The notes: generated by a model from the sequence alone, not told the origin. Shown: positions 6,314 to 38,663, numbered from the stretch's first letter. The stretch: 61,188 nt of DNA from Patescibacteria group bacterium (GCA_016176685.1 JACOWS010000006.1:1-61188), one strand, 5' to 3'. Numbers and translations: made by a program.

Positions 6314-6319
6314 CATCAT

Positions 6320-6339
6320 CCTTACAAACTTGAGAATGT
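6320..6339 (+). repeat. 20-bp direct repeat, copy 2, inside a 10-bp stem hairpin
   Basis: CATCCTTACA-AACTTGAGAA-TGTAAGGATG (6317-6346), immediately after the HTH stop codon. Confidence 0.85.
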
Positions 6340-6406
6340 AAGGATGTTTTAGATGGGGTTGGGTATTGCAAGTTCTGTTGGCTATACAAGTGGATATGCA
6401 AGATGG

Positions 6407-7465
6407 CTACTCTTTAGTTCCAAACAAGCGGTAGAGCGCCAGCTCAAGCGGGAGCGCTGGCAGTGGGGCGCGCGGCGTTTCCACAAGCGCGGTAAGAAGC
6501 TCCGCGAGCATTGCGGAGTTTATTGCCGCCCCCGAAGCGCCGGCGAGTTTTTTTATCAGCACCATATCGTCTGTTCCAAACTGATACTCCAATTCCTTTT
6601 CCATCTTCGGCGCAAAGCGTGCAAGCAAAACCGCTCGCACTCGGGCAACCGCCACCAGCACAAACACGCGCGGCTCTGCCCCCTGCCTAAGCGCGGTATG
6701 GAAAGCGCTGACCGCCGCGGCGATGTCTTTCTCTGCCAGCGCCTGCAAAAAGGCGCCGACAAGCTTGGAAGGAGGTGCCCCCACCACCGCCGCCACCTCG
6801 TCTTCCGTCAGTGTCGCATCGGGAGAGATGGTGAGCACCTTTTGCAAAATCCCCAGCGTGTCGCGGAAGGAACCCTCCCCCATCATGGCAATAAGTTCCG
6901 CACCGGCCGGCGCCAAGCGTGTGCCTTCTTTTTTGGCAATGTCGAGCGCCAGTGTTTTGAGCACCTCGTGCGACGGTTTTTTAAAGTGGAATACCTGGCA
7001 GCGCGATTGCACCGTCTCCGGCACCTTCTCTAGCTCGGTTGTGGCCAGCACAAAAATAGCGTGTTCGGGCGGCTCTTCCAACGTTTTCAGCAGTGTATTG
7101 AAAGCGTCTTTGGTAAACATGTGCACCTCGTCGAGTATGTAAAATTTATAGGTTGAGGAAAATGGCAAGGTTGAGACACCCTCGCGCAGAGTGCGTGCGT
7201 CGTCTACCTGGCGGTTGGAGGCCGCGTCTATCTCGTAGACATCCTCGTCGTGAGTGCCGAGGGCGTGCGCCAAAATGCGCGCCATCGAGGTCTTGCCCGT
7301 GCCGCGCCCGCCGGCAAAGAGGTACGCATGGGCGACCTTTTTTTGTTTGACCGCCGCTTCCAATACCTTGGTGATATGCTCTTGCCCAAGCACCTCGGCA
7401 AAGTTTGCCGGCCTATAGGTGCGATACAGCGCCATCGGCGTACGCTCTGTTTCGACTTTTTTCAT
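6407..7465 (-). CDS. dnaX: DNA polymerase III subunit gamma/tau
   Basis: LYRTYRP; Walker A GGRGTGKT; ILDEVHM; AFNTLLKTLEEPP; TVQSRCQ. Confidence 0.96.
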   Translation of the reverse strand: MKKVETERTPMALYRTYRPANFAEVLGQEHITKVLEAAVKQKKVAHAYLFAGGRGTGKTSMARILAHALGTHDEDVYEIDAASNRQVDDARTLREGVSTLPFSSTYKFYILDEVHMFTKDAFNTLLKTLEEPPEHAIFVLATTELEKVPETVQSRCQVFHFKKPSHEVLKTLALDIAKKEGTRLAPAGAELIAMMGEGSFRDTLGILQKVLTISPDATLTEDEVAAVVGAPPSKLVGAFLQALAEKDIAAAVSAFHTALRQGAEPRVFVLVAVARVRAVLLARFAPKMEKELEYQFGTDDMVLIKKLAGASGAAINSAMLAELLTALVETPRAPLPALPLELALYRLFGTKE

Positions 7466-8577
7466 TGCTTACTTAGTATACCGTTTAGAAACCGCTCTAT
7501 CACCCGCTCTACCTCCCTTGCATTATTTGCCTCCATCAATGCTATACGCAACTCTTTGGCGCTGGGGCTAGCCACATACGCCTTAAAATGCTTTTTCATT
7601 ATGGCGAAATTTTTGATGTCGCCCAACAGCTCTTCAAAAAGCTTGGTGTGTTCTACTACTATTCGCAAACGCTCTTCAAGCGAAGGCAAAAAGCTTTGGA
7701 CAAATGGTCTGGCCCGAAGCCCGCCTGAAGGCGGACGAGGGAAACCCGAGGACCTTTGTCCAGAGCTTTTTGCTGAAGCTTCATCGAACAACCACGGCCG
7801 GCCAAAAATGGCGCGGCCGAGCATAATGCCGTCTGCGCCTGTTTCTTGCGCTTTGGCGCGAGCATCGTCAATGCTCAACATATCGCCATTGCCTATAATA
7901 AGCGTTTTGCTTTTCATTTCATCGCGGATCTCGACCGCCTTTTTTATCCGCTCCCAATGCGCGGGTACTTTTGACATTTCTTTGCGGGTACGCGCATGTA
8001 TCGCTATCGCGGCAGGTTCTGCCACAAGGAGCGCCGGTAGCCACTCTTCTAGTGTGTCTTTGTGGTAGCCAAGCCGCGTTTTGACCGAGACAGGCAAATG
8101 CCGCCCGCCGGGCAGACTCCGTCTGGAGACTCTGTCGGAACGAGCACTCTGGGCGGCGCCGCGTTTGGCCGCGGCTATAAGCTCTTGCGCGAGCTGTGGA
8201 TTAAGTATCAGCTTTGCCCCGGCACCCTGTTTTTCTACCACGCGGTCAGGGCAGCCCATATTGATGTCCACGCCGTCAAAACCGAGGCGCGCCGCCAGTA
8301 CCGCGGCTTTTTCCATATGCGCCGGAGTGGCGGTAAAAAACTGCGCCACTATCGGCCGTTCGGTTTCCGTATACAGTAGATCGCGCAAAAGTTTTTGCCT
8401 TCCCGCTTCCGGCGCGAGTGCCAGGCCGTCGGCCGAGACAAATTCCGTCCACAGCACTGCCGGGCCGGCGGGCTTGCTGTACTTTGCTATGATGCGACGA
8501 AAAGCCGCATCGGTGACGTTAGCCAGCGGCGCCAAACAAAAAAACGGCTTAGGTAGTGAGTCCCAAAAGCTTTGCAT
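7462..8577 (-). CDS. dusB: tRNA-dihydrouridine synthase with two in-frame hairpin insertions
   Basis: LAPLANVTD, DINMGCP, VSVKTRLG, AIHART, GNGD and GIMLGRA. Confidence 0.92.
   Translation of the reverse strand: MQSFWDSLPKPFFCLAPLANVTDAAFRRIIAKYSKPAGPAVLWTEFVSADGLALAPEAGRQKLLRDLLYTETERPIVAQFFTATPAHMEKAAVLAARLGFDGVDINMGCPDRVVEKQGAGAKLILNPQLAQELIAAAKRGAAQSARSDRVSRRSLPGGRHLPVSVKTRLGYHKDTLEEWLPALLVAEPAAIAIHARTRKEMSKVPAHWERIKKAVEIRDEMKSKTLIIGNGDMLSIDDARAKAQETGADGIMLGRAIFGRPWLFDEASAKSSGQRSSGFPRPPSGGLRARPFVQSFLPSLEERLRIVVEHTKLFEELLGDIKNFAIMKKHFKAYVASPSAKELRIALMEANNAREVERVIERFLNGILSKQ
7686..7773. repeat. in-frame hairpin element in dus (shares core with the parB element)
   Basis: 19-bp arms 7686-7704 and 7755-7773 (1 mismatch); core GTCTGGCCCGAAGC...GGGAAACCCGAGGAC. 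Confidence 0.85.
8103..8162. repeat. in-frame REP-like element in dus (shared with 37076-37108)
   Basis: GCCCGCCGGGCAGA (14/14) and GAGCACTCTGGGCGGCGCCGC (20/21) match 37076-37108. Confidence 0.75.
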
Positions 8578-27127: not shown

Positions 27128-27213
27128 GCGTCGGTGGTAGAGTGGTCAATTACAACAGGCTGTAAACCTGTCGCCTTCGGGCTACGGAGGTTCGAATCCT
27201 CCCCGGCGCACCA
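27128..27213 (+). tRNA. trnY: tRNA-Tyr(GTA)
   Basis: Loop CTGTAAA, long variable arm, GGTTCGAATCC, encoded CCA. Confidence 0.95.
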
Positions 27214-27349
27214 TTTAGGAAATTGCAAGTCAGAGCTCGCCGCCGCGTAGGACGCGGCGGCTGGCGCATAGTGCGGTTTCGGGTCAAAAACAAATTTGAT
27301 TGGAAAAAAGAAAATTCTTTTGGCATTTAGAAACTAATCAAAACAAACT

Positions 27350-27535
27350 ATGAAGTACGTACTTTACGCTAGAAAGTCCACAGAGGAAGATGACCGCCAA
27401 GTATTGAGCATTGAAGCTCAGCTCGCTGAGCTGTCTTTGTATTCCGCCAAAGAAAAATTTGATATTGTCGCCTCCTTTGAGGAGGCGAAAACCGCCAAGG
27501 AGCCCGGAAAACCATCGGCCCGAACCATGTGTTGA
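27350..27535 (+). pseudogene. serine recombinase/resolvase N-terminal fragment
   Basis: YVLYARKSTEEDDRQVLSIEAQ catalytic motif (YxRxS...Q), truncated at 61 aa by a TGA inside a 31-bp repeat. Confidence 0.85.
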
Positions 27536-27623
27536 TTGGAAAAAAGAAAATTCTTTTGGCATACGCTCAATTGCGATAAATACGTTGGTACATATGGGTA
27601 GTTTTTGATGTCCACACAACCAC

Positions 27624-27653
27624 TTGACAGCTTCATACTTTAGGGTGTATAAT
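27624..27653 (+). promoter_or_regulatory. consensus sigma70 promoter
   Basis: TTGACA-N18-TATAAT, with exact consensus hexamers. Confidence 0.8.
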
Positions 27654-27726
27654 TACAGGGTCATTGGATTCTCTAATGACCCCTACCACGAGGGCTTCGT
27701 GGATGAAGCACCTTGAGGAGAGAAAC

Positions 27727-27951
27727 ATGGATAGCAAGCGCCAAGGCGAAATCGCCCTTGAGCTGGTGAAGACATACGCCAGCAAAAACGGCCTTCCGAG
27801 CGTCGACGAAGCAAAGCGTCGGTTCGGAAATATCGCCAAGGAAACTGGTATTTCGAAGGAAGAGTTGACGGCGTTCGCCGATGCAATTCTTCCCGACCTC
27901 ATCGGTCGGATCTTCGGATACAAGAGTGTCTCCATGGAAACGTCACGGTAA
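27727..27951 (+). CDS. small hypothetical protein (islet cargo), 74 aa
   Basis: SD GAGGAG before ATG 27727; MDSKRQGEIALELVK...; has its own promoter and terminator. Confidence 0.7.
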   Translation: MDSKRQGEIALELVKTYASKNGLPSVDEAKRRFGNIAKETGISKEELTAFADAILPDLIGRIFGYKSVSMETSR

Positions 27952-28068
27952 ATGACGGATAAGAACTTACCACAACACACAGGTTGAGATCCTCGGATCT
28001 CTTAAAGGGTAATGCTCACTATCCTGCGGGATAGAGAGCGAATAAGAACCTTCCTCGTGTTGGTTACT

Positions 28069-28098
28069 GAACCCCTTGCTTCGGCAAGGGGTTCTTTC
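28069..28098 (+). terminator. intrinsic terminator with UUCG loop
   Basis: GAACCCCTTGC-TTCG-GCAAGGGGTTC-TTTC. Confidence 0.85.
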
Positions 28099-28300
28099 TA
28101 TCCATTTGTAAAGAACCATTGTGTGGGCTTTGCCCACTCGAACCTTTTCCGCCAAAGAAAAATTTGATATTGTCAGCGGTGCGGCTTCGCCGCGCCGTTT
28201 TCCTGCGCGGGGTTTGCGCCGCCGCCCCCACCGGCGGCGCTGGTTCGAGCTATTGCAAGTATTTTGCACCATTTAGGAAATTGCAAGTATTTTGCACCAA

Positions 28301-28338
28301 CGTCAAAAAGTCCCAACTTTTGTTGGGACTTTTTGACG
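28301..28338. terminator. 17-bp perfect inverted repeat, probably the clpB terminator
   Basis: CGTCAAAAAGTCCCAAC-TTTT-GTTGGGACTTTTTGACG, 17 nt beyond the clpB stop. Confidence 0.7.
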
Positions 28339-28355
28339 CCCACCTTTGACTATAC

Positions 28356-31070
28356 TTAGGATAAACTTACTTTTTCTTCCCCCAGGATTTCTTGCGGGAG
28401 TTTGACGCGGCGGGTGCGGCCGGTTTTTTTTACCTCAAAAACAAACTCGCCGTCTTTAACATTGACCATTACGCTCCCGCCTTGGAGTACCCCGCGCGAC
28501 ACCATCAAGTTGGCCATTTTGGTTAAAATTTTGTCCTGTATGAGCCGGCGCAGTGGCCGCGCGCCATAGTGCGGGTTGTAACCCTCCTTAGCCAGGTAGT
28601 CGTACACCGCCGGCGCAAACCCGAGCGTAATGTCTTTGGCCGCCAGGCGCGCCACAATTTCTTTAATTGCCTCGGGGCTTAGAATATTGAAGATGATTAT
28701 CTCATCGATACGGTTGAGGAACTCCGGGCGGAAGTGCTCTTTGAGCGCCGCGCTTACCTTTTCCTTCGCCATTTTGTAGTTTTGCGCGTCGCTGGTGCCG
28801 CCGAAGGCAAAGCCGATTTGCTCCATCTTGTCTATGTACTGCGCGCCGATGTTGGAGGTCATAATGATGATAGTGTTGCGGAAGTTGACCCGCCGCCCCT
28901 TGGCATCGGTCAGGTAGCCGTTGTCCAGCACTTGGAGGAGTATGTTAAACACCTCCGGGTGCGCTTTTTCTATCTCGTCAAACAAGAGCACCGCGTAGGG
29001 CCGGTGGCGCACCACTTCGGTCAAGGCGCCGCCCTCTTCGTGTCCCACATAGCCTGGCGGCGCGCCGATAATTTTTGAAACCGAGTGCTTTTCCATATAC
29101 TCGGACATATCTACCCGTATGAGCGACTTTTCGTCGTCAAACATAAACTCCGCAAGCGCGCGCGTGAGCTCGGTCTTGCCCACCCCGGTGGGCCCCAAAA
29201 ACATAAACGAGGCGATAGGCCGGTTGGGGTCGGAGATGCCGGCGCGCGAGCGCTTCACCGCGTCGGACACTTTTCCAACCGCCTCGCTCTGCCCGACCAC
29301 GCGCTCTTTAAGCGACGCTTCGATTCGCATGAGTTTTTGCGCTTCTTCCTCGAGCATGCGCGAGACCGGCACGCCGGTCCATTTTGAAACGACCGAGGCA
29401 ATGTCGCTTTCCGTTATCTCCTCTTTGAGCAGGCGGCGCGAGGTCTGGAGTTTTTTGAGCCTCTTTTGTTTTTGCTCAAGCTCCTTCTCGAGGCTCGGTA
29501 TCTCGCCGTAGCGGATTTCCGCCGCGCGCGAAAGGTCTACCGCCGCCTCGGCGGTGTCCGCCTCCATGCGCAGAGACTCCAGCTCTTTTTTTATAGACTT
29601 AATATCCTGCAAAATCTGCTTTTCGTTCTTCCATCGAAGTTCCAACTCGCCGGTTTTTTCCTTGAGCTCCGCAATATCGCGCTCGATCTCTTTGACGCGC
29701 GCTCCCGCCTTGCCATGAGGCGTCGTGGCGCCTTTTTTGCCGGAAGCGGACTCCTTTTCCCCCTCGGCCTCTTTGCGCAGGGCCTCCTTTTCTACCTCGA
29801 GCCGCATTATTTTGCGGTGGGCATCCTCCAAAACCGGCGGCTTATTTTCCAAAGAGATGCGCAGAGAAGATGCCGCTTCGTCTATAAGGTCTATCGCCTT
29901 GTCGGGCAAAAACCGGTCCGGGATATACCTGGCGGAAAGCTCTACCGCGGTTACTATCGCATTGTCGGTGATGTGCACGCCATGGAAGAGTTCGTATTTT
30001 TCCTTCAGCCCGCGCAAAATAGCGGTCGCATCGTCTATAGACGGCTCAAGTACGTGCACCGGCTGGAAGCGGCGCTGGAACGCCGGGTCGCGCTCGATGT
30101 GTTTTTGATATTCCTTGAGCGTTGTCGCACCCACCACGTGCAGGTCGCCGCGCGCCAGAGCCGGTTTGAGCATATTGCTGGCGTCGAGCGCTCCCTCGGC
30201 GGCACCCGCACCTATCATAGTGTGTATCTCGTCTATAAAAAGGAGGATCTTGCCCTCGGAGCGCTCGATTTCTTTGACTATCGCTTTGAGCCGCTCTTCA
30301 AACTCGCCGCGATACTTGGTGCCGGCGATCAAAGACCCCAGGTCAAGCGAGACGAGCTCTTTGCCGCGCAGAGATTCCGGCACGTCGCCCGTGGCTATCC
30401 GCGAGGCGAGACCCTCGGCTATTGCGGTTTTACCGACTCCCGCCTCGCCTATCAAAATGGGGTTGTTTTTGGTGCGGCGAGAAAGTATTTGGATAACGCG
30501 GCTGATTTCTTCGTCGCGGCCGATAACCGGGTCGAGTTTGTTTTCGGCGGCCATCTTGGTGAGTGAGCGCGTGTATTTGGAAAGCGCTCGGTATTTTTTC
30601 TGCTCCGGGGCGGCCGACTTGCTGGAGCGCAGTTCCGATACCATGCGAACCAACCCGTCCCTGGTGATGCGAAAGCGGTTTAAGAGGTCGCGTGCGGCGC
30701 CGGGTATGTCGAGTAATGCCACAAAAAGATGTTCGGTCGAGACAAACTCGTCGTGGAGTTCGGTGGCCACCTTGGCCGAGCGCTCAAGCACCTGTACCAG
30801 GTCGGGAGTTAGGTACAGCTGGTAGGAAGGCGATAATACTGAAGATACCGAGCCGCTTCCCTCGAGCGCCTCGAGCACCGTGTCGGTGAGCAGTATCACG
30901 TCTATGTCGAGCCGCTCAAGGACGGTGGCAACCAAAGATTCTTCTTGCAGGAGCAGGGCGCCCAACAGATGTATCGGGCTCACTTGGTTTTGGCCGCGCT
31001 CAACGGCGAGCTCGTACGCTCTGCGGACCGCCTCTTTTGCCTTGGTGGTGAAGTGGTTAAATGGGGGCAT
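28356..31070 (-). CDS. clpB: ATP-dependent chaperone ClpB
   Basis: Two AAA+ modules ([16 protein letters not shown]), coiled-coil M-domain, IDLIDEA and GYVGHEEGG. Confidence 0.95.
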
Positions 31071-31085
31071 ATAGTTACTTATATA

Positions 31086-31913
31086 TTACGAACTGGTGGC
31101 TGGTTTTGTTTCAGTAGGGTTTACGGGGGCGGCGGGGGCGGCAGTTTGCGGTATGGAGTAGAAGTCGGAGCCACGCGCTGTCGACTCGGCGGTTATCATG
31201 CCCACCACCTCTCCAAAAAGCGTGATGATAATGGAACCCGGTGTTGCCGAGGACACACTTGCCTCAATCATGCTCGGCGCGGTACCTGGGGCGCCGGCCG
31301 GGATCATTGCAACCACTCCGGAGCCGACTGTGTCTGCACTGATACCGCCGATACGGATGACCGTTTGCCCTAGCGCCACTTTGCTGATGTCAACTATTTT
31401 TACCGGGGCAAAGCCGGTAGAGGTACCGACCGCAACCGCAATGGTTGCGAGCGGGGTCGAGGTTGCCTGCATCGAGGGGAGAGTAAGCGGGACGCGCTCG
31501 CCGCTTGCCAGAATCGCCTCAAAGTCTGTAGCTCCGGATGCCGAGAGTGCCGCACGGTCGGTTAGGCCCGCGCCCTCTTGGCTCATGATAATGCCGCGCG
31601 CCACCAACGTATCGCCCCCCCTTGCAACGATGCGGATAATCCCCTTTTGCACCGAGGCGATAGATTGTGCGATAAGGTCGTCATCTTTAACTACCACCGT
31701 CTTCTCGGTCACGGTTACTGCCGCGGCGCCCAGGTTTTGCGGCACTACTCTTTCTATAGTTTTCTCGACTATCTGATTAACGACCTTGGTGACCCCGGCT
31801 GGGGCTTGGTCCATGAGAGAAACGGTGACTATGCCGGTTGCTATAGACGTCACAAAACTCACCAAAAGCGTGAGTAAAATAATCTGATGCTTAGTGAGCT
31901 TTTCTATATCCAT
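31086..31913 (-). CDS. membrane-anchored trypsin/HtrA-like fold protein, catalytic residues not recognisable
   Basis: TM plus S1C-like layout (GIIMSQEG.GLTDRA, LGQTVI, GEVVGM) without the TNxH or GNSGG motifs. Confidence 0.6.
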   Translation of the reverse strand: MDIEKLTKHQIILLTLLVSFVTSIATGIVTVSLMDQAPAGVTKVVNQIVEKTIERVVPQNLGAAAVTVTEKTVVVKDDDLIAQSIASVQKGIIRIVARGGDTLVARGIIMSQEGAGLTDRAALSASGATDFEAILASGERVPLTLPSMQATSTPLATIAVAVGTSTGFAPVKIVDISKVALGQTVIRIGGISADTVGSGVVAMIPAGAPGTAPSMIEASVSSATPGSIIITLFGEVVGMITAESTARGSDFYSIPQTAAPAAPVNPTETKPATSS

Positions 31914-31937
31914 ACCACAATGTTTTTCTAAGCCGCA

Positions 31938-33266
31938 TTATAGCACATGACGGTACAGTGCGACAATACTTTCCAAGGCGCGGGCGATAGTACGCGCGTC
32001 GGCTCTTGTGGCGGTTGGCAAAAGGGTCAGCCGCAGTGAAGAGCGCGCCAACTCCGGAGAAACGCCGAGCGCCTCAAGCATGTGGCTGGGGTGGCCCGAG
32101 GAAGTGTCGCAGGCACTGCGGGTCGAGGCGGCGATGCCGCCCGCGTCGAGCGCTATAACCGCCATCTCACCGGAGAGACCGGGTATTATTAAATTAATAT
32201 TATTTGCAATCCGGCAGGCCGGAGAAAAGGGGGTAAGACTTGGCCTAGCGGCCCGGAGCGCACCCTTTTCCTGGCCTGCCGGATTGTTCCCACATGCCGG
32301 ACCGTTGAGTTTTGCACTCGGAATGCGCCGCTGTATTTCGCTCCATAAAAAGTCGCGCACAGCCGCCGTCTGCAGTGCGCGTGCTTCGCACCCTTTTGCC
32401 GCCTCCACAAGCGCCGCGGCAAACGCACCGGCCGCGGCGACATTTTCTGTCCCACTGCGCAAACCGGCCTCTTGCCCGCCGCCCCAAATAATCGGCTCAA
32501 CCAAAGTACCGCGGCGTACGTAGAGAGCTCCTATACCTTTTGGCCCGCCGACCTTTTGCGCATCCAGAGTCATCAAATCAACGCCAAGTTTTTCTACATT
32601 AAGCGGCAGCCACAGGGGCGCCTGCGACGCATCGGTGTGCAGGTAAAGCGGGGCAGAATCTCGCAAAGCGAGGGTAAGACTTGGGTCTTTAGCGGCCCGG
32701 AGCGCCCGAGTGTGCGGGATTCTGCCCCGCTTTATAAAACGCAGTTCTTTTGCAATCGCGCGGATGTCTTGCACCGCGCCCATTTCGCTGTTGACCATCT
32801 GCACCGACAAAAGCGCGGTGTCCTCGCCTACCGCTTCGCGCAACTGTTTTGGGTCTAGGAGTCCGTGTGCATCTACGGTAAGTTTTGTAACATACAAACC
32901 CTCGCGCTCAAGCGCGCGCAGGGGTTCCAATACCGAAGAATGTTCTATCGCGCTCGTGACTGCCCCCACCTCTCCACGATCTAAAAGAAGCGGCCGCAAT
33001 ACGCCTTGGAGCGCGAGGTTGTTTGCCTCGGTACCGCTGCCCACAAATATAATTTCGTCCGCGTGGGCGCCGATGGCGCCTGCAACTTTCGCGCGCGCGG
33101 CCTCAAGCTCTTTTTGTGCCGCAACCGCCTCCTGGTGGAGCGCGCTTGGATTGCCAAAAAGCCGCAAGAGCCGTGCAAGCTCTTTTCGTGCCGCGCGCGA
33201 GAGCGGCATCGCCGCCGCCGCGTCTGCATAGACCCGTTTACCCGGCCATCGTATCTGCCATTTCAT
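31938..33266 (-). CDS. iscS: cysteine desulfurase (IscS/NifS family) with two in-frame hairpin insertions
   Basis: GNPSALH, SGTEANN, HTDASQ, DAQKVGGPKGIG, RSGTEN and STRSAC (catalytic Cys). Confidence 0.92.
   Translation of the reverse strand: MKWQIRWPGKRVYADAAAAMPLSRAARKELARLLRLFGNPSALHQEAVAAQKELEAARAKVAGAIGAHADEIIFVGSGTEANNLALQGVLRPLLLDRGEVGAVTSAIEHSSVLEPLRALEREGLYVTKLTVDAHGLLDPKQLREAVGEDTALLSVQMVNSEMGAVQDIRAIAKELRFIKRGRIPHTRALRAAKDPSLTLALRDSAPLYLHTDASQAPLWLPLNVEKLGVDLMTLDAQKVGGPKGIGALYVRRGTLVEPIIWGGGQEAGLRSGTENVAAAGAFAAALVEAAKGCEARALQTAAVRDFLWSEIQRRIPSAKLNGPACGNNPAGQEKGALRAARPSLTPFSPACRIANNINLIIPGLSGEMAVIALDAGGIAASTRSACDTSSGHPSHMLEALGVSPELARSSLRLTLLPTATRADARTIARALESIVALYRHVL
32207..32286. 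repeat. in-frame hairpin element 1 in iscS
   Basis: 14-bp perfect arms CAATCCGGCAGGCC/GGCCTGCCGGATTG; core shared with 32644-32734. Confidence 0.88.
32644..32734. repeat. in-frame hairpin element 2 in iscS
   Basis: 22-bp arms (1 mismatch); core GGGTAAGACTTGG...TAGCGGCCCGGAGCGC. Confidence 0.88.
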
Positions 33267-33300
33267 ATTCGCTCCAATCTACTATATACTGTTTGTACGT

Positions 33301-34833
33301 ATGAGCGAAACGGCCGCGGATAAGGGGGTTCGGCCCCCGATTGTTGCCATTGTGGGACATATAGACCACGGCAAGTCCACCCTGCTCGACTATATTCGAA
33401 AGACCAATGTGGTAGAAGCGGAGGCGGGAGGTATCACCCAACACCTCTCCGCCTACGAAGCCGTGCACAAAAACACAACCGGAGAACATCGCATAACCTT
33501 CCTCGACACGCCGGGGCACGAGGCCTTTAAAGCGATGCGCTCGCGGGGGCTTGAGGTCGCCGACGTTGCTATTTTGGTAGTCTCTGCAGAGGATGGCGTA
33601 AAACCGCAAACGGTAGAGACGCTTAAACTTATTGCCGATACAAAAATTCCTTACATTGTTGCACTCACCAAAATAGACAAACCGGATGCCAATGTAGAAA
33701 AAGCAAAAATGTCTTTGCTCGAGCATGGCGTCTACCTTGAAGGGCTCGGCGGCAACATCCCCTATGTTGCCATTTCAAGCAAGACAGGCGCGGGAGTGCC
33801 GGAGCTGTTGGACCTCATTTTGCTTGCCGCAGAGCTCGAGGGTATCTCCGGAGACCCGGCCGCCCCGCCTAAGGGCGTGGTGCTAGATGCGTACGCCGAC
33901 AGCAAGCGCGGCACCACCGCCACGCTGCTGGTAAAAAACGGCACACTGGAGAGTGGCCAGTTTGTGGTTGCCGGTGATGCGTGGGCTCCGGTGCGGATTA
34001 TGGAAAACTTTTTGGGCAAATCCATACAGCTAGCACTCCCAGGGAGCCCTGCTCGAGTGGTGGGTTTTTCCGCTCTCCCGGCCGCGGGGAGATCGTTTAT
34101 GGTTGTGCATAGTAAAAAAGAGGCAGAGGCACAAGCGCTTGCCAACGCGCCCAAAAAAGCCGGCAGACCCATGCCGGCCGCCCTAGACGCCACCGAGGCA
34201 CAAAGCGAGGAACCGACGCCGCATCTGGTACTCCCTATTGTTATCAAAACAGATGTGGCCGGCATGGGCGATGCGGTTATGCACGAGCTTCGCAAGCTGC
34301 CCCAGAGCGAGCAGTTGGAAATACACCTGGCGCTCCAGGGCGTGGGCCCTATTTCCGAAAACGACGTCAAGCTGGTGGGCGGCGGCAAAACACCCGGGCT
34401 TATCATCGGCTTCAACGTCAAGGCGGATGCCGCGGTACGCGAGGCGGCAGAGCGGCACGGCGTGGTGATAGGTATGTTTGATGTCATCTACAAGCTCGGT
34501 GAGTGGCTCGGCAAAGAGTTTGAGGCGCGCCGGCCCAAAGTGCGCACGGAGGAGCGTACCGCCGCCGCCAAGGTTTTAAAATATTTTAGCGGCGGTAAGG
34601 GCAAGGTGGTCTTGGGCGGCCGAGTCGAGGAGGGCACTTTGGCGTTGGGCGAGGAAGTGTATTTTTTTAGACGCGACCTCAATCTTGGTTCCGGCACCAT
34701 CACCAACCTCCAGGCGCAGAAAAAAGAGGTGAAGCGGGTCGAGGCCGGGGCCGAGTTTGGCGCGCAGATAAAAACATCGGTGGAGCCGGCACCCGGCGAC
34801 AAGTTCGAGGCGCACGCTATCGTATTTAAATAA
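33301..34833 (+). CDS. infB: translation initiation factor IF-2 (short form, no N-terminal domain)
   Basis: [29 protein letters not shown] and IIGFNV; 510 aa. Confidence 0.95.
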
Positions 34834-35148
34834 ATGCACAATCGAGACGACAAAATGCGCGAGGCACTGCGCGAGGTTGCGGCAGAGTTTTTGTCGCGCG
34901 AGGCAAACCCCACCCCGCTTATCACGGTGACCCGCGCCGCACTAAGCGAGGACCACGCGCGCGGCGTGGTGTATATGACCGTGTTCCCCGAGTCGGGCGA
35001 GGCGGCTGCGGTTGCTTTTGCCAACCGCGCCGCTGGGGAGTTTGCAACGTTTTTTAAAAAGCGCATCCGCGGCATGTCGCCGCCGCGCGTTGTGTTTGAA
35101 ATTGATAAGGGAGAAAAAAGCCGCCAACGGCTCGACCAATTACTCTAG
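34834..35148 (+). CDS. rbfA: ribosome-binding factor A
   Basis: ITVTRAALSED...PRVVFEID; directly after infB. Confidence 0.85.
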   Translation: MHNRDDKMREALREVAAEFLSREANPTPLITVTRAALSEDHARGVVYMTVFPESGEAAAVAFANRAAGEFATFFKKRIRGMSPPRVVFEIDKGEKSRQRLDQLL

Positions 35149-35220
35149 AGGCCACGGCGGGAATCGCACCCGCGTATAAGGGTTTTGCAGACCCTTGCCT
35201 TACTACTTGGCTACGTGGCC
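35149..35220 (-). tRNA. trnC: tRNA-Cys(GCA)
   Basis: GGCCACG acceptor; loop CTGCAAA; T-loop TGCGATT. Confidence 0.92.
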
Positions 35221-35260
35221 GTGTTTGTTACTGTATCATTTGATGGTAAAAATAGTAAAC

Positions 35261-35342
35261 GCCCGGGTGGCGGAATTGGTATACGCGCTCGACTTAAGAT
35301 CGAGTTCCGTAAGGAATGTGAGTTCGAGTCTCACCCCGGGCA
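35261..35342 (+). tRNA. trnL: tRNA-Leu(TAA)
   Basis: GCCCGGG/CCCGGGC acceptor; loop CTTAAGA; variable arm; GTTCGAGTC. Confidence 0.93.
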
Positions 35343-35378
35343 CCTGTTAGTGAGAAAGACCAAAGACGCATAAATGCT

Positions 35379-35867
35379 ATGAAATTACTTACAGGGCAGG
35401 AAGAACAAGAAGCAAATAAGTGGTTTGGCGAGGCGGCACAGGTCGCGCGCAGAGCGCTCTGCCTACGTGCCAAGTGTGGAGCAGTTATTGTGAAAGACGG
35501 AGAGATAATTGGCGAAGGATACAATGCCCCGCCGCAAGATAATCCCGAATTCCGAACGTGTTTGAATGAATACGAATTGCCTAAAAATTATCGCCATGAC
35601 CACACCTGTTGCATGCATTCCGAATGGCGAGCCATACTCGACGCCAAAGAACGCAACCCCGCCAAACTCAAGGGCTCACGGCTATATTTTGTGCGAGTAA
35701 CGGATGCAGGCGAATGTAAGCGTTCAGGAAAACCTTATTGCACGGTATGTAGCAGACTCGCGCTTGATTCGAGGATAGCGGAGTTCGTCCTCTGGCAAGA
35801 GGAAGGTTTTGCCGTTTTTCCGACCGATGAATACAATCAGCTCTCGTTTCAAAATATAAAAGAGTAA
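35379..35867 (+). CDS. dCMP deaminase-like Zn-dependent deaminase
   Basis: CLRAKCGAVIV...GYNAPP; HSEWRAI (HxE); PYCTVC (PCxxC variant). Confidence 0.85.
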   Translation: MKLLTGQEEQEANKWFGEAAQVARRALCLRAKCGAVIVKDGEIIGEGYNAPPQDNPEFRTCLNEYELPKNYRHDHTCCMHSEWRAILDAKERNPAKLKGSRLYFVRVTDAGECKRSGKPYCTVCSRLALDSRIAEFVLWQEEGFAVFPTDEYNQLSFQNIKE

Positions 35868-35919
35868 TCCAGACCGAGGGACTTAAGTCTGCTATAGTAA
35901 AATCATCAATACGGTCTTT

Positions 35920-36807
35920 ATGGAATGTATTTACGGCCCGCTTGCGAAAGAATTGCCGGACGGTTTTGCCCCGCCGGAGATGTGGCCGGAGTACGGGCAT
36001 CTTGTCGACCCGGCAGCCATTTGCAAACGCGAAGCCATAAGTAGCGACCCCATGGGCATCCGCTGGAGTTTGTGGCCACTGACGTTTGAAGAGTACGTCG
36101 GCGACACGGTCCCCGATGTAGTGCAGGCAAGCACGGGCGCGCTTGCCTACAGCCGGCTTGCGGTGTGGTACCGGGTACGAAACAACAACAGCGTGGCTCC
36201 CGGTGGGTGGTGGCAGTGGTCCAAACAAACCTATCGCATAGACGGCTATCAGATTCTCTCTTTCCACGAGCACATAACGGCGCACTGGAACAAAAACGCG
36301 CGCAGAGAATTGCGGCTGTGGCAGGAGCGGCACATGGGGACAACGCACGCCGTGATAGAGTTGTCGTTGGAAAAATATACCGAAGCATATAAAAAAAGTT
36401 TGATATCCAAACGACAGGGCAATGACCGACTCTACGCCCTACAGAGAAGGTTGAGACTTCCGGAGGTGGCCGCACACACCACGCTGTGGGGTGTTGTTAA
36501 CAGGCACAACGGTGCCGTGGTAGCCGGCACGGCGATAATCTATTCCCCCACTTATAAAAGCTCGACGCATTTTGCACCATTTATCCTCAAGGAGGCGCGG
36601 CCCATATTTGCGGCCACGGCACTTATACACCATTGGTTTGCCGAGTCGCTACGGAAAGGGATGCCTAAAATAATAACCACCAACTTTTGGCACCAGGGCA
36701 AACCTAAAAGCTGGAAGGGGTTCTCCGAGTTTAAATCGCACTTTGGGTTTACCTACGTTGCATATCCGCCGACCTTGTACCGGTTTGTGGGCGGAAAGTT
36801 TTTTTAA
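35920..36807 (+). CDS. hypothetical protein with GNAT/FemAB-like C-terminal fold
   Basis: WNKNARREL, GAVVAGTAII, ATALIHHWF and GFSEFKSHFG resemble the FemABX-type pattern. Confidence 0.6.
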   Translation: MECIYGPLAKELPDGFAPPEMWPEYGHLVDPAAICKREAISSDPMGIRWSLWPLTFEEYVGDTVPDVVQASTGALAYSRLAVWYRVRNNNSVAPGGWWQWSKQTYRIDGYQILSFHEHITAHWNKNARRELRLWQERHMGTTHAVIELSLEKYTEAYKKSLISKRQGNDRLYALQRRLRLPEVAAHTTLWGVVNRHNGAVVAGTAIIYSPTYKSSTHFAPFILKEARPIFAATALIHHWFAESLRKGMPKIITTNFWHQGKPKSWKGFSEFKSHFGFTYVAYPPTLYRFVGGKFF

Positions 36808-36812
36808 AATAT

Positions 36813-37142
36813 ATGAAAGGGTATGTATACATTCTAAAGGTAAGAAATGGGAATAGATACATTGGATCTACAATAAATTTAGAGAAGAGGGTGCTTGAAC
36901 ATATGAGAGGAAAAGTTTTCTCGACTAAGAATAAGTTACCGGTTACTTTAATGGCTTATAGATTTTTTGAAGATGTAAAAGAAGCTTCACTCTGGGAAAA
37001 AAAGTATAAAAAGAGTCACGGACAGTTGGAAAGAGACATTAAAAAAGGTATATTACTTCTTACTCCAGATGGACTGCCCGCCGGGCAGAGCCCTCTGGGC
37101 GGCGCCGCCCATAGCTCAGTTGGTAGAGCAACTCCCTCTTAA
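36813..37142 (+). CDS. GIY-YIG nuclease whose ORF runs into tRNA-Lys
   Basis: GYVYILK...YIGSTINLEKRVLEH...EKKYKK; the tail derives from a REP-like element and the tRNA 5' half. Confidence 0.85.
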   Translation: MKGYVYILKVRNGNRYIGSTINLEKRVLEHMRGKVFSTKNKLPVTLMAYRFFEDVKEASLWEKKYKKSHGQLERDIKKGILLLTPDGLPAGQSPLGGAAHSSVGRATPS

Positions 37143-37177
37143 GGAGATGGTCCGAGGTTCGAATCCTCGTGGGCGGA
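37105..37177 (+). tRNA. trnK: tRNA-Lys(CTT)
   Basis: CCGCCCA/TGGGCGG acceptor; TAGCTCAGTTGGTAGAGC; loop CTCTTAA; GGTTCGAATCC. Confidence 0.93.
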
Positions 37178-37339
37178 CAAAAGACAATAAAACCTGCCCT
37201 GCGGCAGGTTTTTTGCTTTTGTCCGAGGCGCAGCTATGTCCCGCACTTGCGGGACAGCGAGCCGGGGTCGCGAGCGCACCGAGTGACGGCGAGGTGCGAC
37301 TTGTGACGACAAGGTATTATGATATAGCATGCAGAATAT

Positions 37340-37424
37340 GCTGGGGTGGCGAAATTGGTAGACGCACCTGCCTTAGGAGCAGGTGGGGCAACCCTTGGAG
37401 GTTCGAGTCCTCTCCCCAGCACCA
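37340..37424 (+). tRNA. trnL: tRNA-Leu(TAG)
   Basis: GCTGGGG acceptor; loop CTTAGGA; variable arm; encoded CCA. Confidence 0.94.
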
Positions 37425-37571
37425 GTTCGGAAATTGCAAGTCATTGAAAGTGCACCCGGCCAAAAATATCGATGCCCGAAGTCTAGTGTACTTGTTTATT
37501 ACTCACGACCGCGAGAGATAAACAAGTTACTTAAGGGTTTTTAAATCCGGTTTTTAAGGGGTTTTTGGGCC

Positions 37572-37601
37572 TTGACTTTTGGCCGTTTTGTATGATATAA
37601 T
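37572..37601 (+). promoter_or_regulatory. sigma70 promoter with extended -10
   Basis: TTGACT-N18-TATAAT with TGn; phased T5 tracts upstream (37538, 37551, 37562). Confidence 0.75.
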
Positions 37602-37667
37602 TTTTTATGGAAAGGCGACATGAGGTCGCCCGCAATCGCCACAGACCTTTGACTTGAGAGGTGCAAC

Positions 37668-38663
37668 ATGACAAGCACTACATCTACAACTCCGGAAGAG
37701 CCCCCGGCGTGGGTTCAGATGGAAGAAGAGGCAGCACAAGCTGCCATGAGTCAGATAAGCATCTTGGTAGGCGCAGTGTTCTCTCTGCTCCTAGCCCTGG
37801 TGCTCGACCTCCCAATGCGCCACCTGTTCGCTCTTATTGGGTTGGGTGACTCCCTACTCGTGAACGGCGTGTTCGTACTGACCGTCGGGAGCCTCTACTT
37901 CTTGTGGGGACTCGATAATATCCCCATAGGTTTTCGCGGCGTCGTCCTTTTTTTGGGAAGACGCTTGTTGCGAAACGGTAAGGGGCTCTCGGAAGGGTAC
38001 CAGTGGACCCCACAGCCAATCATGTTCATCAGGCAGGTCGACTGCAAGCCAAAATCGATTGACATAAGCGACGAGGAAGGAGCCTATACCTCTGACGGGG
38101 TCTTAATAGCCACCAATGGCATCCAAAGACTTCGGGTTGGCGGTCCTTACCGCTTCCTCGGTGTTGACGATGCTGTCCTATCGCTGGAGCGACTGGCTCG
38201 CCAGGCAGTCCGCATTGTCATGAAACAAAAAACAGCTGTTCAGGCCCGTAACGCGGACAAAAAAGACTTTTCCGACGAGGTTGCGAGAGTGCTCCACGCC
38301 CAGCTCTACTCCACAAACAACCCGAATGCGGTCATGTGGGGCCTCAATACGGGCACCACTATCATTGACGATATCTGGGCCGTGGACGAAAAGTTGGAAG
38401 CCGCCTGGGCCGCACAGGTACGGGAGCAGGCCGAGGGTGTGGCAGAGGCTGTTCAAACCGCTCGGCGCCGTGAGCAAGCGCAGCAATACATCAACATGGG
38501 GGCAAGCCCTGACTTGGCAGTTATTGCTGCACAAACCGACGTCGAGAAGCCTCATGCTAGCATCAGTGCCACTGCCTTGCCGGGGATACCCGGGGCCATC
38601 ACGGCGGCGGCAAATGCACTCGCTGAGGCCATCAAGGGCTGGTCTGGGAGTGGGAGGAAGTAA
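37668..38663 (+). CDS. SPFH (stomatin/prohibitin/band-7) domain membrane protein
   Basis: TM helices, then IPIGFRGVVLFLGRR...EGYQW, and a C-terminal coiled coil (REQAEGVAEAVQTARRREQ). Confidence 0.75.
   Translation: MTSTTSTTPEEPPAWVQMEEEAAQAAMSQISILVGAVFSLLLALVLDLPMRHLFALIGLGDSLLVNGVFVLTVGSLYFLWGLDNIPIGFRGVVLFLGRRLLRNGKGLSEGYQWTPQPIMFIRQVDCKPKSIDISDEEGAYTSDGVLIATNGIQRLRVGGPYRFLGVDDAVLSLERLARQAVRIVMKQKTAVQARNADKKDFSDEVARVLHAQLYSTNNPNAVMWGLNTGTTIIDDIWAVDEKLEAAWAAQVREQAEGVAEAVQTARRREQAQQYINMGASPDLAVIAAQTDVEKPHASISATALPGIPGAITAAANALAEAIKGWSGSGRK

Follow-up and report, generated by a model that had tools for sequence, protein, structure and literature searches.

Large serine recombinases (LSRs) of phages and islands, such as the A118/LI, SPbeta SprA/YokA, Bxb1 and phiC31 integrases, exchange strands at a very short core without creating a long duplication, and the spacing of their distal recognition motif from the centre is 5 bp shorter in attB than in attP; in the case of LI integrase, the zinc-ribbon motif is found 5 bp further inward in attB (PMC3783163). 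Multi-targeting LSRs of the TnpX/TndX type place one lineage at many sites per genome, at short AT-rich or TT-core motifs and often with DUF4368 (Durrant et al., 2022; PMC10083194); the word tRNA is absent from the main text of that paper. Insertion at a tRNA 3' end, with the element restoring the end of the gene, is found in Islander-type islands and in Prochlorococcus tycheposons, 910 of 937 tycheposon-type elements having a tyrosine recombinase.

The element family analyzed here, for which no published description was found in the literature, resembles the phage and island integrases in the respects named above, and the LSR of its intact members has the same three-domain protein with a coiled coil. 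Unlike those systems, however, it targets the 3' ends of tRNA genes, and not a single locus but many tRNA species. Its B' arm is unconserved and its P and P' arms have no visible symmetry; the integrated element retains a complete inverted attP, and the P' arm is traversed by the recombinase ORF. As in the multi-targeting LSRs, one lineage occupies many sites per genome, but here the multiplicity comes from a structured motif common to a gene family (T-loop and GCA end). The family also restores the tRNA end upon insertion and shares with the tyrosine-integrase islands the small cargo-carrying and recombinase-less satellites, the tandem arrays and the scars; those islands duplicate a long tRNA block, whereas this family shares a core of 3-4 nt and uses a serine recombinase.

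Our analysis concerns a 15-nt motif, GGAAATTGCAAGTCA, in a 61,188-nt stretch of DNA (the window). Comparison with related genomes makes it very probable that the motif is part of the P' half-site of small elements moved by an LSR and located at tRNA 3' ends, with the window copies as relics. It is the first part of the ~95-nt L arm of elements of Parcubacteria/Kaiserbacteria, ultra-small groundwater bacteria in which they are inserted at many different tRNA genes. We observed the anatomy and distribution of these elements, their empty sites, and one element lineage at different tRNAs. The recombination would be catalyzed by the LSR, and the motif is probably bound by its C-terminal (linker/zinc-ribbon) domains.

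Only tRNA-Tyr and tRNA-Leu(TAG), of the ten tRNA genes that ARAGORN found in the window, have an encoded CCA. As the original prediction stated, GGAAATTGCAAGTCA occurs exactly at 27218-27232 and 37429-37443, starting 4 nt past the CCA in both cases (GCACCA-N4-GGAAATTGCAAGTCA; positions +8 to +22 counted from the discriminator base), and a third copy is present at 28276-28288, with a match of 13/15 over 28276-28290. A second exact copy of a 15-mer is expected by chance in 61 kb at ~1e-4, and the two exact copies also share the same register relative to the tRNA end. The 10 kb that separate them encode a ClpB-like ATPase, a cysteine desulfurase, IF-2, a deaminase and three more tRNAs; since this is ordinary host DNA, each copy stands for an insertion site of its own, and their reading as two ends of one element was rejected. 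In the whole 550-kb source genome, the 13-mer with at most one mismatch is found at four sites, three in the window and one past tRNA-Phe (C3:56720). A degenerate copy lies downstream of tRNA-Gly(TCC) and a sister motif, GGAAAAGTCAAAG, downstream of tRNA-Arg(GCG), and the motif is found past only 4-5 of 40 tRNAs. One left end is common to five tRNAs, each with one common right end (...GTTCGAGCTATTKCAAGTATTYTGCAC) further downstream, and the R arm sequence is common to these five elements.

Enrichment of the motif at tRNA ends and its association with serine recombinases, both anticipated earlier, were found on a broader scale. A global scan of ~185,000 species with GGAAATTGCAAGNNNGAGCTC returned 34 matches, 29 of them in CPR genomes. 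All 29 are preceded by [C/T]CA-N4, 21 lie at the 3' ends of tRNAs with 13 anticodons, and another 6 at a tRNA-end mimic carried by the element (R arm); the 5 non-CPR matches have no CCA context. Intact serine-recombinase elements in relatives start with the motif directly past tRNA genes of at least 13 anticodons, and the LSR family is present in 251 of 401 genomes in the order. At 22 of 30 fetched LSR loci, the gene and a tRNA are convergent, with 85-121 nt between them, and at 20 the gene lies between inverted repeats, 82 nt or longer, whose first nucleotides are the last 4-6 nt of the tRNA. The far repeat adjoins a tRNA-end mimic, the last 6 nt of which equal the end of that tRNA (GCACCA, CCGCCA, CAGCCA or CCACCA). 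Two same-genus genomes (G029 and G030) have intact elements at tRNA-Arg(GCG) encoding a 457-aa protein with Resolvase, Recombinase and Zn_ribbon_recom domains, and the window stub is the N-terminus of this recombinase type. In a full-length homologue (P0001, locus L020), PF00239, PF07508 and PF13408 score above cut-off, and the nearest solved structures (PDB) are the SPbeta and A118 integrases. LSRs that are 89-93% identical are found at differing tRNAs (Val/Lys, Arg(GCG)/Arg(TCT), Tyr/Arg(TCT)).

The full elements (L020, L058, L080, and L057 with L070) have the order attL (tRNA-core-L arm), convergent LSR gene, complete inverted attP (R-core-L), cargo module and attR (R arm-core-host), and thereby contain two pairs of ~100-nt perfect inverted repeats. 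An intact element with a window-like cargo and a recombinase lies at tRNA-Phe in a lake (Umea) MAG contig, CAIRSC010000089.1. The window copies are without the LSR and the inverted attP and derive from full elements by deletion, which makes them relics rather than full members. LSR matches in the source genome comprise the stub and two LSRs, one at tRNA-Thr with 37% identity and one with 23%; without a cognate full-length LSR, the copies there are not able to move on their own. The assembler contigs of four metagenomes contained neither an excised site nor a circle junction.

The inverted repeats could also be interpreted as those of an IS-like transposon (L arm, recombinase, inverted L arm) with the motif at the extreme end of its terminal inverted repeat and with the R-bounded cargo as a second, separate unit of the same kind. 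The series of attL, inverted attP and attR would then be a by-product of two adjacent units. Such an arrangement would fit the perfect ~100-nt repeats around the recombinase (20 of 30 loci) and the perfect ~95-nt repeats that the cargo has of its own, both pairs meeting at the core. It is nevertheless improbable, since the recombinase-less elements of the source genome consist of one L and one R arm in direct order without inverted pairs, and L arm, R arm and cargo move jointly between genomes and between tRNAs. Moreover, the R/L junction has an attP-like 5-bp geometry relative to the tRNA, and serine recombinases exchange at one short core and need no terminal repeats. A MITE, or an IS with terminal inverted repeats, was rejected separately, as the mini elements end in L versus R, which are unrelated when inverted, with no duplication beyond the core.

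Native tRNA genes end in GCA(C) with no CCA. In 25-30 same-genus genomes (fetched from up to 40), the motif is absent after the orthologous tRNA-Tyr and tRNA-Leu(TAG); these orthologues end in GCAC without CCA or motif (for tRNA-Leu(TAG), CCA is missing in 25 of 27), indicating that the CCA is supplied by the element. The element contributes the N4 and the CA of CCA, which is why only two window tRNAs end in CCA. An empty site (G021, L084) reads tRNA-Tyr-GCAC-AAACGTCAAAAAGTC and is continuous with the window from 28300 onward, host ACGTCAAAAAGTC... following directly after GCAC-AA. The window attR reads GCAC-CA-ACGTC versus GCAC-AA-ACGTC in empty sites of relatives, 1 base off the simplest prediction. 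The predicted attachment-site arm at a generic tRNA end is supported by the intact serine-recombinase elements, but encoded GCACCA is not the target, as the native genes have no CCA; common to the target tRNAs are the T-loop GTTCRA and G71-C72-A73.

Two other explanations center on the tRNA itself, and we consider both very unlikely. First, the motif could be a host signal for tRNA 3' processing, as had been proposed, or for transcription termination. The fixed register after CCA and the strong L-arm hairpin (90-nt stretch 27211-27300, -39.4 kcal/mol, z = -4.5) would agree with this, and RNAalifold pairs AAATTGC with GCGATTT at the far arm end. Against it stand the absence of the motif at the same-genus orthologues, its restriction to so few source-genome tRNAs and its presence at R/L junctions with no nearby tRNA. 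In addition, the covariation term of 0.16 amounts to none, the sister motif would not pair with an unchanged partner, and an Rfam search gave no family match. Second, the element could have arisen through RNA, with a mature, CCA-tailed tRNA serving as its acceptor or primer and the product becoming fixed in the gene, which would explain why CCA lies exactly at the junction in occupied tRNA genes and is missing in native ones. However, GCACCA-N4-motif lies within a perfect inverted repeat with its second copy far from any tRNA, the attL of tRNA-Gly(TCC) has GCAC-TA instead of CCA, and the elements are associated with no reverse transcriptase and always with a complete LSR.

Under site-specific integration by an LSR, the reading we prefer, the circular form would carry an attP consisting of R arm, GCAC and L arm, with the R arm ending in a tRNA 3'-end mimic (GTTCG-N18-GCACCA) and the L arm starting CA-N4-GGAAATTGCAAG. 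The attB would be the 3' end of any tRNA gene with T-loop GTTCRA and the ending G71-C72-A73. Strand exchange within GCA(C) would yield attL (tRNA-GCAC and L arm) and attR (R arm-GCAC and host DNA), so that the tRNA gene acquires an encoded CCA, with the motif at a fixed distance behind it. In tRNA-Tyr, the crossover dinucleotide would fall within the GCAC core.

Table 1. Features of the tRNA-Tyr element and the tRNA-Leu(TAG) scar (window positions).
Feature	Position	Strand	Remarks
tRNA-Tyr(GTA)	27128..27213	+	ARAGORN; Rfam tRNA model ends A73 = 27210
CA of CCA in tRNA-Tyr	27212-27213	+	Element-derived; 100% identical tRNA-Tyr of G004, G029 and G021 end GCAC without CCA
attL core GCAC	27208..27211	+	Sole sequence common to tRNA end, R arm and attR
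L arm (P' half of attP)	27212..27295	+	CA, N4 (TTTA), GGAAATTGCAAGTCA at 27218-27232, GC hairpin, recombinase tail coding
GC hairpin of L arm	27239-27261	+	Inside 27211-27300
Box P copy 1, promoter region	27296..27326	+	Upstream of recombinase stub
Large serine recombinase stub (dead, 61 aa)	27350..27535	+	Residues 1-53 fused out of frame to the gene's last ~28 nt
Palindrome GCCTCCT-TTG-AGGAGGC	27470..27486	+	Inside recombinase coding, codons 41-46; conserved
Box P copy 2	27532..27562	+	Head of cargo module; exact 31-nt direct repeat with 27296-27326
Cargo	27563..28146	+	Promoter, ORF, terminator-like hairpin
Cargo consensus promoter	27624-27653	+	12/12 match
Cargo ORF, 74 aa	27727-27951	+	Predicted
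Cargo terminator-like hairpin	28069-28094	+	Predicted
N1b, second copy of recombinase codons ~31-40	28147..28174	+	Exact 28-nt repeat of 27442-27469
R arm (P half of attP)	28175..28269	+	Ends in tRNA 3'-end mimic GGTTCGAGCTATTGCAAGTATTTT-GCAC
Second-element tandem scar	28270..28299	+	CA-TTTA-GGAAATTGCAAGT joined at 9-mer ATTGCAAGT to R-arm end (ATTTT-GCAC-CA)
tRNA-Leu(TAG)	37340..37424	+	ARAGORN; Rfam
CA of CCA in tRNA-Leu(TAG)	37423-37424	+	Element-derived; 25/27 same-genus orthologues end CAGCAC without CCA
Solo scar CA-GTTC-GGAAATTGCAAGTCA	37423..37443	+	First 21 nt of an L arm

The tRNA-Tyr copy is the putative attL of a 1.06-kb deletion derivative (27212-28269; Table 1), which has lost the recombinase body and the inverted attP by deletion between short internal repeats. 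Its L arm is 94% identical to that at tRNA-Phe in the Umea MAG (L070) and 79-81% identical to those of L020 and L080; the L-arm alignment comprised the window arm and 16 others. Beyond the hairpin, the 3' part of the arm is the reverse complement of coding for the recombinase C-terminal tail. The stub is identical to the intact Umea recombinase in 52 of 53 residues, matches Pfam Resolvase (PF00239) at residues 4-55 only, and maps on L020 at 7787-7630 and 8056-8078. The palindrome within it is paired in 100% of cells among 14 distinct homologues, 3 of 7 pairs being changed on both sides. Box P homologues are also found upstream of intact recombinase genes, and a contig of metagenome run X4 joins 27295 to 27532, which indicates deletion between the two P boxes, as predicted. 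The region 27486-28269, spanning the cargo, is 95.7% identical to the Umea cargo module over 786 nt; a Pfam search with the 74-aa ORF gave zero matches. N1b adjoins the R arm, a junction also seen in the source-genome Phe and Arg(GCG) elements and in L020, L058 and L080. Past the R arm, the tandem scar reads as the first 23 nt of an L arm followed by terminal R-arm nucleotides, host DNA resuming at 28300; the R-O-L arrangement is the attP junction observed in relatives.

Tyrosine integrases usually insert at tRNA 3' ends, and the Tyr insert is bounded on both sides by an exact 23-nt direct repeat (27208-27230 = 28266-28288) that could be taken for the att core of a classical tyrosine-integrase island, but this is the least credible explanation of all, given that there is no tyrosine recombinase, that the resident remnant is a serine recombinase and that the ends of other elements share GCAC only, and the repeat exists only because the L arm of a second element survives as a scar past the R arm.

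The geometry of the sites agrees with a serine integrase. GTTC precedes GCAC by 18 nt in 31 tRNA junctions; among 16 R junctions, the spacing is 23 nt in 15 and 22 nt in the other (23 nt in the window R arm), which by sequence matches the 5-bp attB/attP offset of these enzymes. The L- and R-repeats overlap by 3-4 nt, GCA(C), in the composite elements L058 and L020, and attL and attR of the other source-genome elements share GCAC only. Inverted symmetry is usual in serine-integrase sites, but the P and P' arms have little of it: inspection revealed the direct 9-mer ATTGCAAGT 28 nt apart, which could not be fitted to a symmetric dimer, and CGAGCT/AGCTCG in some, with no consistent dyad. On the host side, the B' arm is entirely unconserved, an unusual situation for a site-specific LSR. 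The reverse complement of the L arm, with the motif, forms part of the LSR reading frame, so that coding constraint accounts for some of the conservation of this arm.

More tentatively, and with some doubt on our part, the recombinase could read tRNA-gene DNA as a generic half-site, paired with a 5-bp-offset mimic, and the full element could be a two-module device with two inverted attP sites and handle repeats. If so, the half-site would be T-loop GTTCRA and G71-C72-A73 in double-stranded DNA with no host-side demand, making about half of all tRNA genes usable by one enzyme lineage. The handles (promoter box, flanks of the conserved hairpin in the recombinase gene, and ORF end) would let the recombinase and cargo modules fuse, flip and separate, a cassette-exchange system for tiny CPR genomes. 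In layout only, this recalls the yeast 2-micron plasmid, whose recombinase FLP (site FRT) is a tyrosine recombinase: the circle would carry two inverted sites and two flippable unique segments. Unlike that plasmid, the family has another recombinase class and no evidence of replication or copy-number control.

The tRNA-Leu(TAG) scar is, N4 included, identical to the start of the Umea L arm. Past 37443 there is no L- or R-arm similarity and nothing element-like, and the next gene (37668-38663) is syntenic in a second genome (G001). This scar is fixed in four metagenomes.

Within the window, ARAGORN finds ten tRNA genes, and printing the 3' ends and trailers of all tRNAs of the genome (G000, of whose seven contigs the window is C7) confirmed that only tRNA-Tyr (27128-27213) and tRNA-Leu(TAG) (37340-37424) carry an encoded CCA there. 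The 15-mer GGAAATTGCAAGTCA lies exactly 4 nt past the CCA of both (27218-27232 and 37429-37443), the third copy matches it at 13 of 15 positions (28276-28290), and 27208-27230 is repeated exactly, over 23 nt, at 28266-28288. The original prediction took this motif for the element-side arm of an attachment site, and a search after all tRNAs of G000 recovered further left ends at tRNA-Phe, tRNA-Gly(TCC) and tRNA-Arg(GCG). The similarity of these L arms, which carry the motif (GGAAATTGCAAG) at their tip, spans about 95 nt past the tRNA and includes GAGCTC, a GC-rich hairpin and then ...GGCGATTTCGC. A common right end, the R arm (...GCCAAAGAAAAAYTTGAWATTGTC/AGCGGTGCGGCT...GGTTCGAGCTATTKCAAGTATTYTGCAC(CA)), follows 0.8-1.5 kb downstream in each insert, with unrelated host DNA beyond, and the L and R junctions of one insert have just GCAC in common. 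At least 7 of the 40 tRNA genes of this 550-kb genome are occupied by elements of the family. A single 10-kb element bounded by the two motif copies was ruled out, because the genes in this interval have housekeeping functions.

Comparison with empty sites bears on the origin of the CCA. The tRNA-Tyr genes of three same-genus genomes (G004, G029 and G021) are 100% identical to that of the window as far as GCAC and divergent beyond; the empty site of G021 reads GCAC-AA-ACGTCAAAAAGTC plus a hairpin, and this sequence is the host DNA that resumes at 28300 behind the window insert. tRNA-Leu(TAG) ends in CAGCAC, with no CCA, in 25 of 27 same-genus genomes. The CA of the CCA, the N4 spacer and the motif are thus the element's own sequence, which explains the restriction of CCA to these two tRNAs within the window. 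The proposed target, a generic GCACCA end, stands in so far as many tRNA species are used, but its CA is supplied by the element and native ends are GCAC. An encoded CCA followed by N4-GGAAA behind a Parcubacteria tRNA is a quick marker of present or past insertion. Encoded CCA as a universal marker was rejected, since several same-genus tRNA-Tyr genes combine it with native-looking downstream DNA.

Intact serine-recombinase elements that start with the motif at a tRNA end do occur in relatives, whose genome records are those of Candidatus Kaiserbacteria or Parcubacteria. Two same-genus genomes each have two copies of the motif in opposite orientation, separated by about 1.6 kb. In L020, a locus of genome G030, the recombinase has Resolvase, Recombinase and zinc-ribbon domains (Pfam), and its closest solved structures are the SPbeta and A118 integrases. 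No stop codon interrupts the recombinase ORF of the family ahead of the core, and the reverse complement of the L arm with its motif is part of the translated sequence. Neither the L020 cargo protein nor a 74-aa ORF of the tRNA-Tyr insert has a Pfam match. L058 and L080, loci of other genomes, repeat the layout of L020 down to its four short internal inverted repeats.

Features of the element family in the window, elsewhere in G000 and in the intact element L020
Locus	Feature	Position	Content
Window	tRNA-Tyr insert	27212-28269	L arm, box P (31-nt promoter-region repeat), recombinase codons 1-53 + last ~28 nt of ORF, second box P, cargo, N1b, R arm
Window	tandem scar	28270-28299	CA-TTTA-GGAAATTGCAAGT-ATTTT-GCAC-CA, directly after R arm
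Window	tRNA-Leu(TAG) scar	37423-37443	CA-GTTC-GGAAATTGCAAGTCA, all that survives
Window	ORF hairpin	27470-27486	
G000, C3	L end after tRNA-Phe		same left end as window
G000, C5	L end after tRNA-Gly(TCC)		degenerate copy
G000, C4	L end after tRNA-Arg(GCG)		sister version GGAAAAGTCAAAG
L020, order 1	tRNA-Arg(GCG)		
L020, order 2	L arm	6318-6417	~100 nt, counted from GCAC core
L020, order 3	recombinase		457 aa, opposite strand
L020, order 4	perfect inverted L arm, then perfect inverted R arm		minus strand reads R-GCACCA-L, a complete attP
L020, order 5	cargo gene, then R arm, then host DNA		cargo 250 aa
L020	ORF hairpin	7652-7668	
L020	internal repeat: ORF end	6418-6445/8056-8083	
L020	internal repeat: segment after hairpin	7630-7651/8034-8055	
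L020	internal repeat: segment before hairpin	7668-7697/8975-9004	
L020	internal repeat: promoter box	7815-7842/8115-8142	

Of 401 genomes sampled from the order, 251 (~60%) have recombinase homologues (E <= 1e-20), frequently more than one per genome and frequently at the end of a contig. In 22 of 30 fetched loci, a tRNA gene is convergent with the recombinase gene and lies 85-121 nt from its 3' end; the recombinase gene of 20 loci is enclosed by an inverted repeat (82 nt or longer, in most cases 100% identical) that starts at the final 4-6 nt of the tRNA. A tRNA-end mimic is always present past the far repeat, its final 6 nt being the end of the tRNA used: GCACCA, CCGCCA (Ser), CAGCCA (Gln) or CCACCA (Ala). 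A scan of about 185,000 species genomes with GGAAATTGCAAGNNNGAGCTC returned 34 matches, five of them in unrelated bacteria, without CCA context and in roughly the number expected by chance. The remaining 29, from CPR (Patescibacteria-type) genomes, are all preceded by [C/T]CA-N4, and the enrichment at tRNA ends on which the prediction depended was borne out: 21 lie directly at tRNA 3' ends, six at R-arm mimics and two in other left contexts. Thirteen anticodons are represented among the 21 (Arg five times, Leu and Lys twice each, Tyr, Phe, Gly and Val), in agreement with the claim that more than one tRNA species is targeted. Recombinases 89-93% identical sit at different tRNAs (Val(CAC) versus Lys(TTT), Arg(GCG) versus Arg(TCT), Tyr versus Arg(TCT)). 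Window positions 27486-28269 (cargo module and R arm) share 95.7% identity over 786 nt with a segment of CAIRSC010000089.1, a contig of a MAG from Umea whose complete element, with an intact recombinase (52/53 identical to the window stub), is located at tRNA-Phe; its N4 is GTTC, as in the window tRNA-Leu scar. These identities show one element lineage at different tRNAs. The elements are probably a main route of gene gain in CPR genomes and often the reason why MAG contigs break.

Serine integrases normally have one target site, and a link to tRNA genes is rare. This family appears to solve target choice via features common to all tRNA genes, with a shifted mimic of them in its own site. Among 51 distinct junctions compared, the distance from GTTC to GCAC is 18 nt in all 31 tRNA junctions, and 23 nt in 15 of 16 R-arm junctions, with 22 nt in the remaining one. 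This offset between tRNA T-loop and R-arm mimic agrees with the rule for LI integrase, where half-site positions 16-24 of attP and 11-19 of attB are taken up by the zinc-ribbon motif, and the 5-bp inward shift in attB underlies site discrimination (PMC3783163). On the opposite side of the core, the 15-mer could cover roughly the stretch that the linker and zinc ribbon would bind in the P' half-site, formed by the L arm. The P half (the R arm) and the P' half have no clear dyad symmetry, and the 9-mer ATTGCAAGT occurs in both as a direct copy. The host-side arm is without conservation, and the crossover is bounded only to GCA(C). The family gives a concrete rule for telling attB from attP and might supply integrases whose landing site is small, predictable and ubiquitous. 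Our literature search returned no account of serine-recombinase elements at tRNA ends in CPR bacteria, and the main text of the large survey of large serine recombinases (LSRs) by Durrant et al. is without mention of tRNA (PMC10083194).

Other explanations fare less well. An IS-like reading, in which the mobile unit is the recombinase gene between its two L arms, accounts for the perfect repeats but leaves both the L...R mini elements and the co-travelling cargo unexplained. An RNA-mediated origin of the CCA does not fit, as it conflicts with the inverted attP copy and with the tRNA-Gly element, which lacks CCA. A host processing or terminator signal, the first of which had been offered as the alternative for the motif, is excluded on four grounds: orthologous tRNA sites are empty of it, the motif also occurs at places without a tRNA, the only pairing predicted (RNAalifold) shows no covariation, and Rfam gives no match. 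A tyrosine-integrase island is likewise excluded, the enzyme found being a serine recombinase and the core just 3-4 nt.

Against this background of serine-recombinase elements, the window holds relics. The 61-aa ORF of the tRNA-Tyr insert is a serine recombinase N-terminus (Pfam Resolvase, residues 4-55 only), and N1b is a second copy of recombinase codons ~31-40. The insert could derive from a flipped isomer of the full element, in which recombination between two copies of N2 (the segment after codon 46) would delete the recombinase body and the inverted attP. A contig of run X4, one of four groundwater metagenomes, lacks 27296-27531 (27295 joined to 27532) through a deletion between the P boxes; the stub is therefore polymorphic in the population, and P-box deletion also accounts for the recombinase-less elements at tRNA-Phe and tRNA-Arg(GCG). 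This was the one internal deletion variant in the assembler contigs of the four metagenomes, which contained no empty site and no circle, and the tRNA-Leu(TAG) scar is fixed in all four. Comparison of the sequence past 37443 with the arms of all loci gave no similarity and hence no R arm, and the gene that follows belongs to the host, with conserved synteny. The tandem scar is an L-arm start fused to an R-arm end at the common 9-mer, the remnant of a second, tandem element and the source of the third motif copy and the 23-nt repeat. Apart from the stub, G000 has only two LSRs, 37% and 23% identical; without a cognate full-length LSR, all its GGAAA-type copies are therefore non-autonomous.

A palindrome with a 7-bp stem and a 3-nt loop occupies codons 41-46 of the recombinase ORF. 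It is fully paired in 14 homologues, and compensatory changes preserve the stem even where they change amino acids (ASFYEA, ASFEEA, ASLCEA, ASLSEA). The 20-30 nt on either side are duplicated alongside the R arms of the cargo module, at their inner ends, the hairpin marking exactly the start of N1b and N2. In every full element examined (L020, L058 and L080), four near-perfect inverted repeats of 20-30 nt connect the recombinase and cargo modules; they vary among elements, yet agree inside each element, a pattern that suggests either gene conversion or modules that have repeatedly fused and resolved. In locus L051 (6328-6420), the L arm continues, 33 nt on, directly with the sequence immediately 3' of the hairpin in the recombinase gene, another deletion with breakpoints at the L-arm and ORF hairpins. 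In locus L023 (1274-1420), an intact tRNA-Val without CCA is followed after 20 nt by a duplicated tRNA-Val 3' fragment ending in GCACCA and then by the element, which suggests that a piece of a previous host's tRNA was carried along.

Several further loci were noted. The 37% identical LSR (C2:77497-79048) is full length and belongs to another clade. Its gene converges, shortly before the end of the contig, with that of tRNA-Thr(GGT), where a CCA is likewise encoded. The distant homologue (C2:31756-32790), with 23% identity across 353 aa, is separated by about 460 nt from the minus-strand tmRNA gene (33250-33638) and may represent another RNA-gene-end element. At C3:5332-8360, a Gln-clade R-arm mimic (GTTCGGATTTTGTTCAAGAGACA-CAGC) 2.9 kb downstream of tRNA-Gln(CTG) marks another element of the wider family, in which no recombinase match was found. 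On C4 (6650-7713, minus strand), an R-like end (GCTATTTCAAGGATATACCAC) lies downstream of tRNA-Leu(CAG), followed by a stray tRNA 3' fragment (GGAGGTTCAAATCCTCTCTCCGGCAC). In the ClpB-like gene of the window (28356-31070, minus strand), all contigs of metagenome runs X1 and X2 have 24 additional bases (ACTACCTCTTGTATCTGGATGCCG) after 28653, an in-frame difference of 8 codons between assembly and reads. Finally, downstream of tRNA-Leu(TAG), a consensus promoter (TTGACA-N17-TATAAT) and a GC-rich hairpin leader (GGAA.GGCGAC...GTCGCC) at 37560-37660 are kept in many same-genus genomes (L114, L123, L125-L131); they precede a conserved 331-aa gene without Pfam match, for which the hairpin may act as a structured leader.
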